From a virus (lineage: Duplodnaviria; Heunggongvirae; Uroviricota; Caudoviricetes): 28,274 nucleotides of DNA. Shown here in pieces: positions 4,156 through 27,201 of the stretch. The stretch's first letter is position 1; every line of letters begins with the position of its first letter. Made by a program: the position numbers and the translations under genes. The notes under the pieces were generated by a model that worked only from the letters and a program-made list of their open reading frames with translations, had not been told where the DNA came from and did no database searches. The stretch lies in the IMG/VR virus record IMGVR_UViG_3300006143_000348; one strand, given 5' to 3'.

Positions 4156-7100
4156 TTACCAGTTGCTGAGTCCTTTTGATAGGCTGGTGTTTCCATCCAC
4201 GCGGTCTGAAGTCATCGAATGAATCATCTTCTCAAACTTCCCATCCCTGCGCATCTGGTTCGCAAAGTCATTGTAGTCAGACACGTGGTCAATAGGGATG
4301 TTTACCTCATAGGTAATATTGCTGGCGGGTGCCTGGGCTGGGCTTGACGGAGCGTCTATTTTTCCAATAGAGCCGATGATGTCGGGTACTGGGTTCTCTG
4401 CGAAGATATTCGTCAGCGGGCTGGTTCCGTCGGCGATACGCTGCAAAGCGTCCTTCAGCTCGATGAAGTTTGCGGTGTCCTTGGAGTTCAGCACAAGCTC
4501 CGGCTCTCCGGGCGTACCGTCAAGCTGCGCAAGCCCGGTGTAATCCACGAGTCCGCCCTTCTTGAACTTGTTGTAGTGGTACGGCGCAAGGGATTTGATT
4601 CCGTGGTATTTACCAGGCCATGTGCCGTTCTGTACATACCCATCCTTGCCCATTTTATTAACGATAGATTTGACGCGGCTGGTGTCAAACCCTTTCGCTT
4701 TCAGCCTTTTCGACTGCGTATCCCCGGTGCCCCATCCGTAGCCTCCGTTCCAGATAGCAAGTGCTACACCGTGGTTCTCTTTTTCAGTGCGTTTCTTTTT
4801 CTTCTCAGTGGAAGAGGGCTTTTTAGGCTTGCTATCGTTTAACGTGGTTGCAGTTGGTATATTGCCGAAGGAACCTAAAATGGGGTGTTTTGTACTTTGC
4901 GTGGTAACTACGGCTGTTATGTTTCCAGAAGAGCTGGAGCCTGAGTTAGAGTTTTTATTAGGGTCATCCTTTTTGTCTTTGCCGGAAGAGCCGGAGCCGT
5001 TCCCGTCAGTGTTGTTTGCGGTATCGCCAGCGGCAGCTAACAGGGCTACGTAGTTAGCGATGCTGTTCAAGACGCTATTGACAGAGGTCAGGGAGCTGCT
5101 GAAGGAATCGCCATATTTCATGATGATAGAGGCGGTGTTTTCACTAGACATCCAGATATTCTGCATGTTTTCGGATAGGGTATACCCAACTTTCTCGCTT
5201 TCAGCAGTGAGTGTAGTGCTGATGGAATCCGCATTTGCGTTGATTCTGTCAATCATGTCTGAGAGCAGCACGTCGGTATTGTCCAGACGCTGGTTTAGAA
5301 CCTCCTCATATTCGGTGTAAAGGCTGTCGAGCAACTTCTTCTGTTCAGTGATGTAGTTCTCGTATTGCGTTTCTTCTAAGTCAGCTTCCGCTTCTTCAAG
5401 GCTGACCTGGAGTCTTTGTATGACTGCACGGTTTTCTTCGGATGTGTCACCAGCGTATGCGGCAAGCTGTTTCCGCAGCTTGGAGATTTCGGATGTCTGG
5501 CTTGACACTTTCTTCTGGTAGTCGTACAGGTCTTTCGCGCTGTCGAGTGCATCCGTGTAGGTGTCAATCAGTTTTTGCAGGGCATCAAGCTCGATGTTGA
5601 TTCCTTCCTCGACCATATCCCGGATGGCTTTTTTCTCTCCGTTGGCAGCAAGGATGGATTCACGCTGGGCTTCAATCAGCTCCTTACGCCTGTCCAGGAG
5701 TTTTGTGTTGTAAGGGTCTTCTGCGATTTCCTTATCCAGCGCCATAATTTCCTTTGCGTACCTGTCGGCTTGAGCCATATACACGTTATAGTTCTGGCCG
5801 TGCATACCCATAGTTGCCATACCGGTGTCTGTGAGCTGCCCGGTATCGTCATATAGCTTGGAGTTTTCCATGAGGCTGATTAGGAATTCAGCTTCTTCGG
5901 CAACCTGCCCTATCTGTTCCTGGAGGTAGTCGAAATGCCCCCATTTGACCTCCCGGATGCTATTTCCGAGCTTGATGATTTCTATCCCGGATTCCTGGAT
6001 GGCTTCTTTGACTGCATTGATTTCCTGCTGCATTTCGTACCATGCCTCGGAACCCTTTTTGATTCTGCCGGAATTTACAGCTTCATTCATTTTCTTGGTC
6101 AGGGAGTCAAGTTCTTTCTCACGGAGCTTAATGTTCTTCCGCTCGACATCCTGAAGCGCTTCATAATATTTTGTGCTGGAGAGGTAGCCGCGTTCCTCGA
6201 TTTCAGAGATATTGTTGTTGTATGTCGTGGTGAGGTGTTCCAGGGTTGAAAGTTTGTTCTCGTAATGCGTTGCCACGTCATTGAACTTGTTCTGGTACAG
6301 CTCAGCCATGCTTTCACGCAGCTCCTGTATAGCGTCCCGGCACTCCATTGCCTTTTCATACCATTTCTGGTAATTCTCTATCTTCTCGGCGGTCTTTTCA
6401 TCGTATTTCGTGATGTCTATTGTGCCTTTGCGGACTTTCTTCTTCAGGTCTCCGGACAGGGAAACTGATTTGGCTTCCTTGCGGTACCGGTGGTATCCTT
6501 TCTTCTGTATGGACAGTTCAGCGGCCATTTTGGACAGCTCTTTGTTCGTTGCAGCCAGCCTTTTAGACAAGCCTTTGAATGGGCTTGTGGCAGTTGTGGC
6601 AAGCCGGTCGATTGCCCGCTCAATCCGGCTTATGGCGATTTCAATCCAGTCAATGATTTTGGAATTGTCCTTCTTATCTTTCTTCTTATCAGATTTTGAA
6701 TCAGAATTCGAAGAGCCCTTGTTGGAGGACGACGCCCCCGGGGAGTGCGTGCCGACGCCGGAGTTCGGCCTGCGTGAACCGCCAGTACCATTTTCATATG
6801 CATTGAGGTTCAGCGTATTGAACGCCGTCCCGTCTGCAAGTGCGCGTTTCCCGTGCCCGCCTCCTGCTGTAACCCGTCCGGATTTTAGGAGTTCCTTTGT
6901 CTGTTCGGCGGAGAAGATGATATCGCCCTTCTTGAGCTGTGCGACGTGTGCGCCGCCAGGGAGCGGATACCACTTTCCGTCACGGACGATGGATTCTGTC
7001 CCCAGCTCATTGACGAGCGCATCCTCATCATCCATCAGAGACCAGTTCTGCCCTGATGCGTATGCATTAACAGGATAGATGTGGTTTTTAGTAGAGCGGA

Positions 7101-21709: not shown

Positions 21710-23597
21710 TTATCCCCAATCGTCTTTCTGCTCGGAAGATTGCTCTCCACTGTCTGTCAATTCTGTTCCGTCGCTTACTGGACGGCCGCCTTCATCTGTT
21801 GGGGCATCGCTGTCTTCAGAGGGAGTGCTTACCTGGGTAGAGCTTATAATAGGCTTGAACATGTCCTGCAGGCTCATAATCTGTGTCTCCAGGAAGCTCA
21901 TGCTGTCAAGTTCAGACTGCCCAAGCCCCTGTGACGCAGCATACATGGATATTGTCGGAAGCCCATAGGACGCCGCTTTCAGGTATGCATCACCAAGTTC
22001 CTTTCGGTTGAACGGGCTGCAGTCCAGGAATGTGACCTTGAAGTTCTTGCCATATCCCTGCGCCTGGATGAACCGGTTCACCACGTCTTCAATGCTCTTT
22101 ACAATACCAAATGTCAGCGCCTGGTCTGCTTTGATGGAGAGCATCAGCGCATTAGCGGATGCTTTTTCATTGTTGAACAGCAGGGATGATACCCCGGCCG
22201 CTGTGAAGATGTTCTGTTCTGCGTCCACGATGGTATCGGTGTCACCAGTGTTCGAACGCTCGAAACTGATTTTGTCAATATCCATCGGAGTCAGTACGGA
22301 GCCGATTTCCTCTGGGAGCACGGAGTCCAGGTTCATCCAGAACTCCTTTGCCTTATCGTAATCTATGCCCCAGTTTCCATCGTCGTCCATAGGAAGCTTC
22401 ATGGATAGCATGGCATAGTTCTCAAGGGCTGTTTTTGTGAGTTTTAATTGTTTATCCATTTTGTTTGGAATAGTTATTTGCATAACTTTCGGGTTCGCTT
22501 TCCCGTCCAGTGTCATTTACACTTCTCCGTCTTTCGACAGAGTGCAGACTATATCTTCACCATGCCGCAGTATTGCGGTTTAGGGTTCCCCATTTCGGGG
22601 CGCTTGCCCCTACTCCCTTGCGGGATAGTCGTTGAACCTTCCTCTGTTCAAGGCTTGGCTGCTGATTGCCCATTATAAAAAGAGCAGGGGATTTAACCTC
22701 GCTCCTATACAATCAATTTTTTCTGTTTTCACAACCGTCACGCCTGCACTTGTTTCATTGCTACGTTGTGGTCTGATTGTCTTTAGGGGTTTCCAGCAAT
22801 TAAAGGAATTGTTGCTATACGCCGTTTCCAACGTACCGACCTATATTTAAGTCCTCAAGGTCATACAGTTCCCTCAAAATGCCTGCAAATGGCGGGAGGG
22901 AGTATGCCAGGATGTCGTTGTTCACTTTCACCGCGAATGAAGTAGGTGAGTCAAGCTCTATCCATCTGGAGGTACGCTGTTTCTGGTATACGGCGTACTT
23001 CGTTTTAAACTCCTGGGGATAGAACTCCAACATCGCGCTGTGTGAGTCAAAGTATGAAAAATCGAAGGTTACGTTCAGCACGTTCCCTTCGATAGTAGAA
23101 ATGGCACAGTAATCGCTTGGCAGCTGCTGTATGGTAATGCTGTCATTTGTGACCCACATCGTCCCATAGAACGTATCTTCACGAAGGCAGACAGTAAGTA
23201 TTTCCGGAAACTGTGTCTTAATGTTCATAGCGGACAGTGCGTTTAAGACTTTCCGGTAATTGCGGCTGATAGTCTTCGGGCTGATGCTTTTCGGGTCTAT
23301 CTTATGCGGCGATACCACATAGGACAAATCGGACAATCCAGTAAAATATTGGATTATCCGGCGGAAATGGGCGGATGCCCCATATATGTATGTGACAGCA
23401 TTACGCAGCTGTTTCTCATACTGGTAAGGGTTGGACAGGTAAGTTGTGATATCGTCCTTAGAATATAAGGAGAATGTAGGGGTTGTGGTATTATTATTCA
23501 AATCCCTGGTAATCAGCCGGTTCAGGGCTGCAAATTTACCTGATATGCCAACCATTTTTGAGATGTCAATGCCATCCCATGTTCTTTTTCCCGCCAT
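21710..23597 (-). CDS. Portal protein, spliced: join(23597..22850, 22455..21710), 497 aa
   Basis: The two track ORFs join in frame when the group I intron is removed: GAG GAC T|AT AAA gives ...LYDLED-Y-KQLKLTKTALENY.... Exons are 748 + 746 nt = 498 codons. It lies directly after the terminase and has an acidic C-terminal tail. Confidence 0.85.
22456..22849 (-). ncRNA. Group I self-splicing intron (IA2-like, no ORF), 394 nt, in the portal gene
   Basis: The 5' exon ends in U and P1 is GACU/GGUC with a U.G pair. P = AAUUGCUGGAAAC, Q = AAUCAGCAGCC, R = GUUCAACGACUA, S = AAGAUAUAGUC. Two extra stems lie after the 5' strand of P7 (UCCC-GCAA-GGGA and GGGGC-AAGC-GCCCC). P9 is CUCUGUC-GAAA-GACGGAG and the intron ends in G. 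Confidence 0.93.
22545..22672. repeat. Copy 1 of a 128-nt direct repeat (intron catalytic core); copy 2 is at 24620..24747
   Basis: Ungapped manual alignment shows 123/128 identity at an offset of 2075 nt. Confidence 0.95.
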
Positions 23598-25681
23598 TTA
23601 GTAAACTCACCGCCTTTCTCTTATAATGTGGTGGTTTGATGATGAACATGTCAGCGCTGCCGATTCCGGCATTGTGGCGTCTGTTCATTTTGGTTTCTAT
23701 CTGTGTTGCGACATAGTAGTTGTATGAAAGGCTGGAATACCGGTCTTTCCTCATGCCAGATTTTTCCGATATCTTAATTTTGCCTCCAGACTCTTCGTGC
23801 TGGAGCTTTGTCAGTTCGTCAATCAGGAGCGTCGTTTGGATATACGGGAGCTGCATCTGCATCTTCTCGGAAGGAGAGAGGGAGCTGTATCCCCGGATTT
23901 CACCAAGGTATTCCTCAGCGTCGTATTCCGTAGCCAGAAGCCTGATACGGCCGCTCCTGAATGCTTCCCTTAACAGGAACGCGCAGTCAGAATTAAATTG
24001 GGCGCTAGCTTTGATTGACCAGATAACCTTGTCCGCCCCTGCTACGGCGCACCGTGATGCCATTTCTGCGTTGTTGCAGCATGAGAGCGCAGGATATATC
24101 TCCCCAGTCTCAGAATCCACGATTTCCCTGGCCAGGCAGTCATAGACGCCGATTCCAAGCCCGTTTGTATCCAGGACGATGTAATCGCATTCGAATTCAT
24201 CATATAGTTTCCGGATATATAATGCCTGGTCATCCGTGCGTAACCCTTCGCATGTGTCGGCATAGACAAGGCCGCTGGAATACCTTCCTGCCTTTGTAGG
24301 CACCATCTGGTTGATGAAGAGGGCGGTAGCATCGTTCTGGTTCTTCCTGCTGGACATAAGTGCGATGTCAGCGGAAAGAATCCGTATCTCCCCGTTATTT
24401 TTCACCGGGATGCGGACAAGCTGTGAGTTGTTTAACTTTGAAGCTAGTCTGCCCGGAAGCATCGGGTACTTAATTTTCCTGTTCTTTGAGATAGTGTTGT
24501 AATCAAAAAAAGAGCCGTCGGCATTTCCATACCACAGCGCTTCGTATTCCCAGTAATGTTTATATGAGGCCGCTAACCTCATCTGGCGTTTTTGATGCCC
24601 TTTGGCTTTCACCAAAGCTCAGACTATATCTTCACCATGCCGCAGTATTGCGGTTTAGGGTTCCCCATTTCGATGCGCTTGCATCTACTCCCTTGCGGGA
24701 TAGTCGTTGAACCTTCCTCTGTTCGAGGCTTGGCTGCTGATTGCCCAATCAAAGCCATTTTCGAGCCATCACACTTATGCATATTTCATCATTATGTTGT
24801 GGCTGGTTTTGCTGTAAGGGGTTCCCAGCAATTAAAGGAATGCTAACATATGGTTTCCCATATGCTCAGACTAATTTAATCTGGAATTTAATCTCATTGA
24901 AATCTGTCTCGGCCATCTCATCTGCAACGGTATCCCTGTCAAGGAGTCCTTCTGTGACTGAAAGCTGGTAGGGGAGGCCGCATACAAACTGATGCTTCGT
25001 ATCGTCCAGCATGAACCTGCAGGTGTCCGTGCATTTGGTATAGCTCCAATGGTCAACGAAATACGCAGAGGACAGGTACATGGTCTTATTTTTCTCTTTG
25101 TTATACTCAGCTAACTTTTCTGCTTTTGTAAGCTTTGAGTATTCAGGCATACGCCTTTGGGTAAGGAATTTACGCAGGATTGTATCTATGACGTCTTTGG
25201 ATATCATGCGGAACTCATCGAGGAGCAGGAGAGTGGCACGGTTGCCACGGGCTGTGTCCGACGCGGTTACAACTTTGATATAGGATGTATTTTTAAATAC
25301 AATCTGTGCATTGGTTCCGTTTATTTTCGTTTCTTTTTCATCAATTTCGGCGGCTAGCTCCGGCGAAATCGGCTTTAGTTCGAGGATGATTTTCTCCAGA
25401 ATGTTGATACTTTGCCCGCGTGTGCCGGATGCGATGCATATCTTTGTACCAGGGTATAAAATACACCTGATTACACAGAAGACTGCGCTCAGGAATGATT
25501 TACCGATACCACGGCAGCCTATGAACACAGTGGTCGAAGACCAGTTCATCATCATTATCAGGATTTTCTGGAAGACGTGAAGTTCAAGATGAAGGTAATC
25601 CTTCGCTAGACGGTGCGGGTTTGCGCGGTAATATGCGCACCAGAGTGCCGCACCATGCAGAACGCGTTCAGTTCTGTTCAT
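23566..25681 (-). CDS. terL: Terminase large subunit, spliced: join(25681..24879, 24550..23566), 595 aa
   Basis: Exon 1 has Walker A (GCRGIGKS), Walker B (LLLLDE) and a YLSSA coupling-motif region. Exon 2 has the RNase H-like nuclease acidic residues (ILSADIA, LDTNGLG, KDRYSS). Splicing gives TTC CAG AT|G GAA TAC = FQ-M-EYEALW. Exons are 803 + 985 nt = 596 codons. Confidence 0.92.
24551..24878 (-). ncRNA. Group I self-splicing intron (IA2-like, no ORF), 328 nt, in terL
   Basis: P1 is CAGAU/GUCUG with a U.G pair and P2 is GCAUAUGG-GAAA-CCAUAUGU. The P/Q/R/S elements match the portal intron. P9 is CUUUGGU-GAAA-GCCAAAG, the intron ends in G, and removal restores the frame. Confidence 0.94.
24620..24747. 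repeat. Copy 2 of the 128-nt intron-core repeat
   Basis: It differs from copy 1 only at GGGG/GATG, CCCC/CATC and one A/G. Confidence 0.95.
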
Positions 25682-25687
25682 AAGGCT

Positions 25688-26677
25688 TTATTCAGGCTCG
25701 TCGGAAGAGAAGATGTCAGAGAACATGGTTTCGTCATCTTCGTCTTCGTATTCGGGCATTTCTACCCGCATCCTTGCAAGCTCATCCTCGTATAGCTTGC
25801 AATAGGTGTTTTTGATGCCAAGCATCTTTGATAAGTGTCCAAAGAACCATATGGATACGTAACGGATGATACCGTCGGCATCCTGGAAGTCAGGGTCGGG
25901 TTCCGGGATAGGGCGTTCATTTTCCCACCGCCGAATCCATACGCCGAATGGCGTCTTTTCCAGGGATGAATCTGCATCCCCTTTTTTCTGCGTAGGCTTG
26001 AGGTTCAGGCTCCCAATCAGCGTGTTCAGGGAATTAACGCTTTTGTCGATTGACCTGCCCGCTGCCGCGTCGTTTGCAATGCTTACCTCAAGGTTGCAGA
26101 GCTGGCGCATCAGCACGTCGCTGCCGATATCGTCTGACTTATCGTCATGCGGGAATGCCTGCGGGAACTTTTCCATATAGTATTTCCGCCTTTGCTCCAG
26201 GCGTTCATAAGTATCTGGTGAATAGCCGGAACCCCAGAAAGCCATAACCTCATCTGTGACGGGTACAGGCACGCCGTCGCCGCGCTGTGCTGCCATTGTG
26301 GTGCTGGTTTTCCATAAAGTACCTTCGTCCATCAGGGTGTCATCGTAGCTTTTCCCGGCTGTCGAGACATGGTTGAGTTTTGCAACATACCGTGATATCA
26401 GGCTGTGCGGGGAACTCTTCTTGGCTACATTCTCATAAATTGCGTCATTCCAGTAAAGGTCTAGCTTCCGGCAGATTTGCCGGGTAGCTGCCTTAGAATC
26501 GCCACACTGGGAGAGGTACTTCTCGTACATGGATTCAAGGCATTTCTTACAAATAGGTATGTATCCAGTTCCTTTATAGGATTCTGCGTAACTAACGGGG
26601 AAATTGTATTTGCGGTTTGGGTATGCTATCCCGCATTTCGTGCATATCGTCCGGCTGGAAGCGACTTCAATCGCCAT
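25688..26677 (-). CDS. Zn-finger protein preceding terL, about 329 aa (candidate small terminase)
   Basis: CTKC...CKKC motifs at the N-terminus, a helical middle and an acidic C-terminus, directly upstream of terL. SD GGCGGTGA favours the ATG at 26677 (MAIEV). Confidence 0.6.
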   Translation of the reverse strand: MAIEVASSRTICTKCGIAYPNRKYNFPVSYAESYKGTGYIPICKKCLESMYEKYLSQCGDSKAATRQICRKLDLYWNDAIYENVAKKSSPHSLISRYVAKLNHVSTAGKSYDDTLMDEGTLWKTSTTMAAQRGDGVPVPVTDEVMAFWGSGYSPDTYERLEQRRKYYMEKFPQAFPHDDKSDDIGSDVLMRQLCNLEVSIANDAAAGRSIDKSVNSLNTLIGSLNLKPTQKKGDADSSLEKTPFGVWIRRWENERPIPEPDPDFQDADGIIRYVSIWFFGHLSKMLGIKNTYCKLYEDELARMRVEMPEYEDEDDETMFSDIFSSDEPE

Positions 26678-27140
26678 AGTCGTCACCGCCTTCCTCTTCG
26701 TCATCAGGTATTAGTGCATTTGAGTAAGAGCCGCCCTCTCCAAGTGAAAGCTCGAACATTTTCGCGCACATCCGCAAATCACTGCCGAAAATGAATTTCG
26801 GGATGTACCTTTCCGAGACTTCAACTATTTCTCCGGTTTCCGGATGCTTTGTCGTCCTGGCTTTCCGGTAGTGTACCCCCAGCGTGCCGAAGCCTCTGAC
26901 GGAGACATGCTCCCCGCGCCTTATTGCATCTTCGATAACCGCGATGCATGTGTCCATTACGGCGCTCACATCGTCGACGGTGAAAAGGACTCCTTTGTTT
27001 GACTTCTTAATAACGAAATCACTTACATTCCCATCGTCGTCAGATATATGGAACACTTTCTTCTGTGAAGAGACGGGCTTGCGGATATTATTTTCGCGCA
27101 TCACGCTGGCGACACGCTGTATTAATTCTGTTTTATTCAT
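26667..27140 (-). CDS. HU/IHF-family DNA-binding protein with an insertion, about 157 aa
   Basis: MNKTELI...GEHVSVRGFGTLGVHYRKARTTKHPETGEIVEV...PKFIFG matches the HU fold. SD AAAGGAG precedes the ATG at 27140. Confidence 0.85.
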   Translation of the reverse strand: MNKTELIQRVASVMRENNIRKPVSSQKKVFHISDDDGNVSDFVIKKSNKGVLFTVDDVSAVMDTCIAVIEDAIRRGEHVSVRGFGTLGVHYRKARTTKHPETGEIVEVSERYIPKFIFGSDLRMCAKMFELSLGEGGSYSNALIPDDEEEGGDDYGD

Positions 27141-27201
27141 ACATACTCCTTTACTTTGTGTTGGCACTCCAAAAAAAATAAAGCGTTAATATTTGGGGCG
27201 A

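Follow-up and report, generated by a model that had tools for sequence, protein, structure and literature searches.

Two group I introns that interrupt the neighboring TerL and portal genes of an SPbeta-like gut phage share a catalytic core that was probably exchanged between them

Two adjacent packaging genes of a gut phage, encoding TerL (terminase) and the portal protein, are each split by a group I intron, and the two introns have nearly the same sequence over the 3′ half of the catalytic core. They lie on the minus strand of a 28,274-nt stretch of DNA, here called the window, which covers the initial 28 kb of IMG/VR virus record IMGVR_UViG_3300006143_000348 (119 kb; 98% complete). We estimate at roughly two in three the probability that the shared core reflects gene conversion between co-resident sibling introns of one mobile family, and not a new regulatory system; this reading is drawn from sequence comparison. 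Gene conversion among phage introns is a known kind of event. What the comparison adds, as a side result, is that a ribozyme core appears to be exchanged between insertion sites in this phage clade.

The similarity is concentrated in one block. The best ungapped diagonal between the introns runs from 24747..24620 against 22672..22545, with 123/128 bases identical, and it is the sole large direct repeat in the window, the copies being spaced 2075 nt apart. The block spans P5′-P4′-P6-P7-P7.1-P7.2-P3′-P8-J8/7-P7′. Of its five differences, one exchanges U.G for C-G in P6, and the others form two compensatory pairs in P7.2 (GGGGC/GCCCC vs GAUGC/GCAUC). An earlier, sequence-only reading of this DNA had reported the same identity and had described all five differences as preserving pairing; all five do fall on predicted pairs. 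It had also described P1 with the internal guide sequence (IGS), P2, most of P5 and P9 as different between the introns. P1-P2, the P5 extension and the portion from P9 onward are indeed only about 48–54% identical, yet they are homologous, with covariation, and the two guide sequences differ by a few bases only. The 25-nt 5′ strands of P3-P5 are 96% identical between the window introns; this value is uninformative because it is equally high (92–96%) in every TerL/portal pair of the subfamily.

Databases were searched with the core block. Among GenBank phages, full-length matches reach ~75% at most. In an IMG/VR sample of ~65 family members, the best matches, at 87–89%, are the portal introns of two related loci, L016 and L017 (L numbers denote related loci and contigs throughout), with the rest at ≤79%. 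An identity of 96% is therefore not normal among unrelated phage introns. Parts of the core are widely conserved, since exact copies of a 29-nt P7-P7.1 segment are present in 42 diverse viral contigs.

The histories of core and periphery were compared in an alignment of 14 subfamily ribozymes, 12 of them distinct, which gives 66 pairs. The window pair is 96% identical in the block and 48% identical in the periphery. Three other pairs have blocks that are at least 96% identical; all are near-identical orthologues, with peripheries at 94–99%. Block identity in cross-site pairs is 78–93%, and the co-resident pairs of L113 and L120 have 87% and 78%, respectively. The window pair is the top outlier of the 66 (z = 2.7–3.3). 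Similarly, triplet counts make the window introns nearest neighbors in the block and not in the periphery (Fisher p = 0.008 to 2e-6).

Phylogenies of the two parts conflict. In the maximum likelihood (ML) tree of the periphery, TerL-site and portal-site introns fall apart with a single site change (support 85/96), and the 3′ periphery alone, from P9 onward, likewise follows the insertion site with one change. The ML block tree needs four site changes, as many as shuffled labels do, and an approximately unbiased (AU) test on the block rejects a TerL-site clade (p = 3.8e-5). Three block types are each found at both sites. Thus, across the relatives, the block ignores the insertion site and the exon-proximal ends follow it. 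As read from these alignments, the exon-adjacent ends of the introns stay with their site, and the inner parts, the core block most of all, pass from intron to intron. Of the two origins that the sequence-only reading had offered, the comparative data favor gene conversion between the two cores.

Several observations weigh against this reading. First, not all of the periphery carries a site signal: the P5 extension alone shows none (four changes), and the periphery without the IGS follows the site weakly (three changes). Second, an AU test in which the window introns are made sisters in the periphery does not reject that arrangement (p = 0.056, or 0.31 without the IGS columns). Third, only two block states are exclusive to the window pair, and a test on exclusive shared states is weak because it rests on two positions. 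Fourth, the absolute excess is modest, i.e., five differences vs 9–16 in other cross-site subfamily pairs. Fifth, four of the five differences cluster in P7.2, so a single clean conversion tract is by itself no explanation. Lastly, exact-pattern scans with the TerL intron 5′ end, and with the shared P8 in IMG/VR and metagenome contigs, matched nothing except the phage's own genome, so that no relative with a “pre-conversion” TerL intron was found.

A rival account is a recent duplication. One intron would have been copied to the second site within this phage lineage, by reverse splicing or endonuclease-driven ectopic insertion, after which the arms (P1, P2, the P5 extension and P9) diverged fast and the core was constrained. 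The window introns are mutual nearest relatives in the block, as a duplication would have it, and their guide sequences are only a few bases apart; the AU result on periphery sisterhood fits as well. However, L113t, L115t, L107t, L116t and L120t are already TerL-site introns that share the IGS of the window TerL intron and resemble it in the P9 region, indicating that the TerL-site lineage predates this phage. In addition, the 48% periphery identity of the pair is below the 56–68% that either intron shares with its same-site relatives, and retargeting to a new site needs no change in P2 or P9. We consider a recent duplication unlikely.

Less likely again is that there was no exchange: no other part of the ribozyme would be as constrained as the block, and the two copies would each happen to retain a near-ancestral sequence. 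Block identity in the subfamily is indeed generally high, even across sites, and the small number of derived states exclusive to the pair is what such an account would predict. On the other hand, the block is not frozen: in orthologues, P6, P7.1, P7.2 and P8 are free to vary and do so with covariation. The window introns have identical P7.1 and P8 loops, and every other family member compared differs from them there. Constraint also leaves the outlying position of the window pair unexplained, and the block tree contradicts the site lineages across the family, as the AU test on the block indicates.

The practical risk with any repeat in a metagenome assembly is that the assembler collapsed or copied it. 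Beyond that general risk, nothing points to an artefact here, and its probability is negligible. Both genes are intact after splicing, and the five differences are structured. The same phage strain is present in two other ENA samples, as contigs L119 (1985 nt) and L123 (3291 nt). L119 matches the window at 450/450 positions over the portal intron and flanking sequence; L123 is 99.88% identical to the window over its 3291 nt, with the TerL intron identical at 328/328 positions. These independent assemblies, with identical introns in the same flanks, refute an assembly artefact; because they represent the same strain, they do not inform the order of events.

Returning to gene conversion, the two introns would descend from two site-specific lineages, their exon-proximal ends matching the TerL-site and portal-site introns of relatives, and the 3′ half of the catalytic core would have been homogenized recently by homologous recombination between copies that lie 2 kb apart and have long conserved strands in common. 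The block of the TerL intron is 88% identical to portal-site introns and 85% to TerL-site introns, and its periphery is 56% identical to portal-site and 64% to TerL-site introns. This pattern suggests the portal intron as donor, and the most likely direction would be from portal to TerL, with the TerL intron receiving a portal-type core. The five differences would have arisen later in P6 and P7.2, both variable helices, as changes that keep the pairing. Both the conversion event and its direction are put forward as the most likely course, judged from the aligned introns.

Both introns are real. An Rfam scan of the whole window gave two matches above threshold (cut-off, 50 bits), both to RF00028, on the minus strand and over model positions 1–253: 22525–22859 (83 bits) and 24600–24887 (81 bits). 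Splice sites were referenced to intron-less IMG/VR relatives, e.g., L004 (598-aa TerL and 513-aa portal protein), by tblastn against the window. The L004 alignments place the breaks at FQ/M/EYEALW (TerL) and ED/Y/KQLK (portal), where slashes mark the break. Together, the homologue breaks, the U.G pair of P1 and the terminal G fix the intron boundaries. The junctions of the sequence-only reading, GAGGACT/...G/ATAAAC and CCAGAT/...G/GGAATAC, are correct: they restore ED-Y-KQLK and FQ-M-EYEALW as in the intron-less homologues. In silico splicing yields a 595-aa TerL and a 497-aa portal protein with no internal stops, both colinear with the intron-less homologues; the spliced TerL is 81% identical to that of L004 end to end, and the spliced portal 76%. 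This exact excision and the Rfam scores bear out the claim that TerL and the adjacent portal gene each contain a group I intron. Feature coordinates are collected in Table 1.

Table 1. Positions of exons, introns and intron parts in the window
Feature	Position	Strand	Remarks
TerL exon 1 (ATPase domain)	24879..25681	-	ends ...CCAGAT, codon phase 2; Pfam TerL_ATPase, PHROG terminase; 85% identity to residues 3-272 of intron-less L004 TerL
TerL group I intron, 328 nt, no open reading frame	24551..24878	-	RF00028, 81 bits; boundaries from intron-less homologues
TerL intron IGS	within 24865-24874	-	
Shared 128-nt core block, TerL intron	24620..24747	-	123/128 identical to 22545-22672
TerL block, P6	24712-24729	-	Rfam alignment and RNAalifold consensus
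TerL block, P7.2	24672-24685	-	Rfam alignment and RNAalifold consensus
TerL intron P9	24600-24617	-	
TerL exon 2 (nuclease half)	23566..24550	-	starts GGAATAC...; PHROG matches; 78% identity to residues 268-597 of L004 TerL
Portal exon 1	22850..23597	-	ends ...GAGGACT, codon phase 1; phrog_2739 profile positions 37-258; 80% identity to L004 portal residues 35-269
Portal group I intron, 394 nt, no endonuclease open reading frame	22456..22849	-	RF00028, 83 bits; boundaries from intron-less homologues
Portal intron IGS	within 22836-22844	-	
Portal intron P5-extension insert, 44 nt	22677-22720	-	
Shared 128-nt core block, portal intron	22545..22672	-	
Portal block, P6	22637-22654	-	
Portal block, P7.2	22597-22610	-	
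Portal intron P9	22525-22542	-	
Portal intron P9.2 mini-hairpin	22473-22486	-	GTTAT-GCAA-ATAAC
Portal exon 2	21710..22455	-	starts ATAAACAA...; phrog_2739 profile positions 258-497; 72% identity to L004 portal residues 271-513

The predicted fold is that of a typical phage ribozyme of this class. An RNAalifold consensus of five family members recovers P2, P4, P5, P6, P7, P7.1, P7.2, P8, P9 and P9.1, with compensatory changes on both sides in 30 of 75 pairs. P3 is missing from this pseudoknot-free fold; both of its strands are visible in the Rfam alignment. In P1, GACU/UA pairs with UAGGUC and CAGAU/UA with UAGUCUG, with a U.G at the splice site. The portal intron ends in ...AAAAUGG (terminus UGG) and the TerL intron in ...CAUUACUG (terminus CUG), the last G being omega-G in both, and both introns run past their Rfam matches at the 3′ end via extra P9.x hairpins. 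Covariation supports the predicted hairpins P7.1 and P7.2, which separate P7 from P3′, as well as P9/P9.1; extra helices and extended P9 elements of this kind mark the phage-type subgroup IA2, to which the introns probably belong. Both are, by sequence and predicted fold, ordinary group I introns of the subgroup IA type with P7.1 and P7.2, and are expected to self-splice. Each would leave the late mRNA by guanosine-initiated two-step transesterification, in which P1 would pair the internal guide with the 5′ exon around the U.G and omega-G would mark the 3′ end, and their removal would give full-length TerL and portal protein.

There are in-frame starts inside both introns, an ATG at 22516 (window 22514–22516) and a TTG at 24615 (24613–24615). 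Gene callers consequently give each exon 2 as a separate, N-terminally extended open reading frame (ORF), of 268 aa for the portal and 349 aa for TerL.

The sequence-only reading had proposed that the pair is an undescribed system. It is not: introns of the same subfamily occupy exactly these two sites in related phages, usually with a GIY-YIG endonuclease. Among 52 related IMG/VR loci, TerL is uninterrupted in 41 full-coverage loci and carries one to three insertions in nine, at eight or more sites. Within this set, the portal gene is split in L016 and L017 only, exactly at the window's site; their introns are ~1030 nt long and encode GIY-YIG + NUMOD3 proteins in the P9.2 loop. Searches with the exon-1 ORFs returned hundreds of split TerL and portal fragments in public protein sets. 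The contigs obtained from these searches include TerL-site introns with GIY-YIG genes in L107 and L112–L116, and portal-site introns with GIY-YIG genes in L120–L122. L113 has introns at both sites, each with a GIY-YIG gene, and the same portal site is occupied in L016, L017, L113, L120 and L122.

Neither window intron contains an endonuclease ORF, and no homologue was found in the whole 119-kb genome. Since the orthologues carry GIY-YIG and NUMOD sequences and the window copies lack them, the window introns are, by comparison, derivatives that have lost the endonuclease, one from each of two mobile intron lineages established at their specific sites. The subfamily moves in this phage clade by means of a GIY-YIG/NUMOD homing endonuclease that is encoded within the intron, in P9.2. 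In L016 (3286–4316), a perfect 11-bp stem (TTATGCAAATT / AATTTGCATAA) forms P9.2, and its loop holds the endonuclease gene. The mini-hairpin of the portal intron looks like the product of a clean loss of the P9.2 loop.

TerL is also a target of other introns. In L024, L035, L040, L044, L045, L046 and L051 taken together, its breaks fall at eight or more sites, and a single gene can contain as many as three introns; some insertions of 1.0–1.8 kb probably hold endonuclease genes. An intron in L035 (5633–5998) and L036 (~5653–6000), positioned after the AT of the Met271 codon, was considered as an orthologue of the window TerL intron at the same site and was rejected as a different lineage; it is a group I intron without blastn similarity to the window's. 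The introns of L045 and L024 lie 6 nt downstream and 8 codons upstream, respectively, of the window's TerL position. Judging by these positions, the TerL Met271 region is an insertion hot spot. L045 has three further introns in a YonB-like capsid gene.

The sequence-only reading had also suggested that the common core gates packaging, with a single input (GTP, Mg2+, a chaperone or a binding factor) controlling the splicing of both genes. Two features of the locus are in keeping with such adaptive co-regulation: the genes lie on one probable late transcript, with portal exon 1 and the end of TerL overlapping by 32 nt, and both require splicing. Moreover, a role as a “molecular on-switch” has been proposed, as speculation, for phage introns, namely those of Bastillevirinae (PMC11878797). 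Set against this, the introns are absent from most relatives, which make TerL and portal protein without them, and they bear the hallmarks of selfish elements, including homing endonucleases in the orthologues. The co-resident pairs of L113 and L120, as noted above, are not homogenized. All group I introns depend on GTP and Mg2+, so core identity adds nothing for those inputs.

A dedicated sensor is equally lacking in support. A riboswitch-controlled allosteric group I ribozyme, in which a ligand aptamer is joined to the ribozyme, exists in Clostridioides difficile (PMC3984707). The Rfam gathering-threshold scan of the whole window returned the two RF00028 matches only, with no aptamer, sensor or other RNA family adjoining the introns, although a novel aptamer could escape such a scan. 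We therefore find no support for gating by the shared core and regard co-regulation as very improbable. Equally improbable is the broader idea that the core is actively kept identical, either so that one factor co-controls TerL and portal splicing or so that a hybrid intron, composed of the TerL 5′ half and the portal 3′ half, skips the exons between. In silico, a hybrid splice of TerL exon 1 to portal exon 2 encodes TerL residues 1–267 followed by I and a stop, i.e., an ATPase-only product. If the core were maintained in this way, the introns would be a timing or dosage device for packaging.

The introns belong to the known phage group I introns, and no new type of system is revealed. The closest parallel is provided by introns 1–3 of orf142 in the Staphylococcus phage Twort (Landthaler and Shub 1999, as cited in PMC10136302), assigned to IA2, which are, like those described here, several small, related, endonuclease-less introns in late structural genes. 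By direct comparison, all three Twort introns end in the same ~36 nt, and mean identity is ~70% per alignment column; the identical 3′ stretch is a precedent for patchy identity among co-resident introns. Introns 2 and 3 have been described as highly similar (PMC10136302). The Twort introns differ from the window's in that they interrupt one gene, with very short exons between them and exon skipping. The window introns interrupt two adjacent genes 2 kb apart, and what they have in common is not the P7′-P9 end but 128 nt making up the 3′ half of the core.

The td, nrdB and nrdD introns of T4 are similar to those of this clade in being spread by endonucleases (GIY-YIG/HNH), sporadic among relatives and persistent as endonuclease-less or defective copies (PMC2988022; PMC3984707), and routes of ectopic intron movement have been reviewed (PMC3984707). 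Unlike the window introns, they interrupt genes of nucleotide metabolism and have cores that resemble one another far less; the evidence for the window introns is comparative only. In 1990, Bryk and Belfort reportedly described recombination between the conserved cores of different T4 introns.

In Bastillevirinae and other Herelleviridae, group I introns, one to three per gene, interrupt TerL, and GIY-YIG or HNH genes often accompany them; their splicing has been verified in vitro and in vivo, and exon skipping was seen (PMC11878797). The window differs in representing an SPbeta-like siphovirus of gut Clostridia and in its intron sites. The main text of that study does not mention the portal gene, and homogenization of cores between genes is unaddressed (PMC11878797).

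SPbeta itself has a homologous TerL/portal region (yonF and neighbors), and group I introns are present in it. They differ from the window's in lying in ribonucleotide reductase genes and not in packaging genes; Lazarevic is said to have reported them in bnrdE/bnrdF in 1998. Finally, the sequence-only reading had called the pair “twin ribozymes”. That term denotes introns, as in Didymium and Naegleria rDNA, in which GIR1, GIR2 and a homing endonuclease are combined, so that one intron holds two ribozymes with separate roles. The window has two separate introns in two genes, with one splicing ribozyme each, and shares the name alone.

These results matter for annotation, since TerL and portal are split here and in many related gut phages, and standard gene callers report four fragments. 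For intron evolution, they would provide a clean natural example in which exon-proximal ends stay with the site and the catalytic core passes between sites. Such core exchange bears on how endonuclease-less introns stay functional and on how introns gain new sites.

The same genome carries a third RF00028 intron outside the window (G000:C1:43909-44233, plus strand, 82.5 bits; also L002:1501-1825). Like the portal intron, it has the 44-nt P5-extension insert, and the two also agree in the 5′ portion of the block; they differ in the P7.2-P8 region. The insert is absent from the portal-site orthologues in L016, L017, L113, L120 and L122, and within the aligned set it otherwise occurs only in this third intron. 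The pattern hints that introns of this genome exchanged sequence a second time.

In tblastn comparisons, the TerL and portal proteins of the window were similar to those of SPbeta-like Bacillota phages, SPbeta yonF among them. A crAss-like phage had been suspected first and was ruled out by this result; on protein similarity, the source is an SPbeta-like temperate gut phage. Directly upstream of TerL lie a YonG-like gene (25688–26704; phrog_3314, with Pfam YonG_N/YonG_C in relatives) and a gene for an HU-type DNA-binding protein (26667–27167). In relatives, a tyrosine-integrase-like gene precedes this pair.

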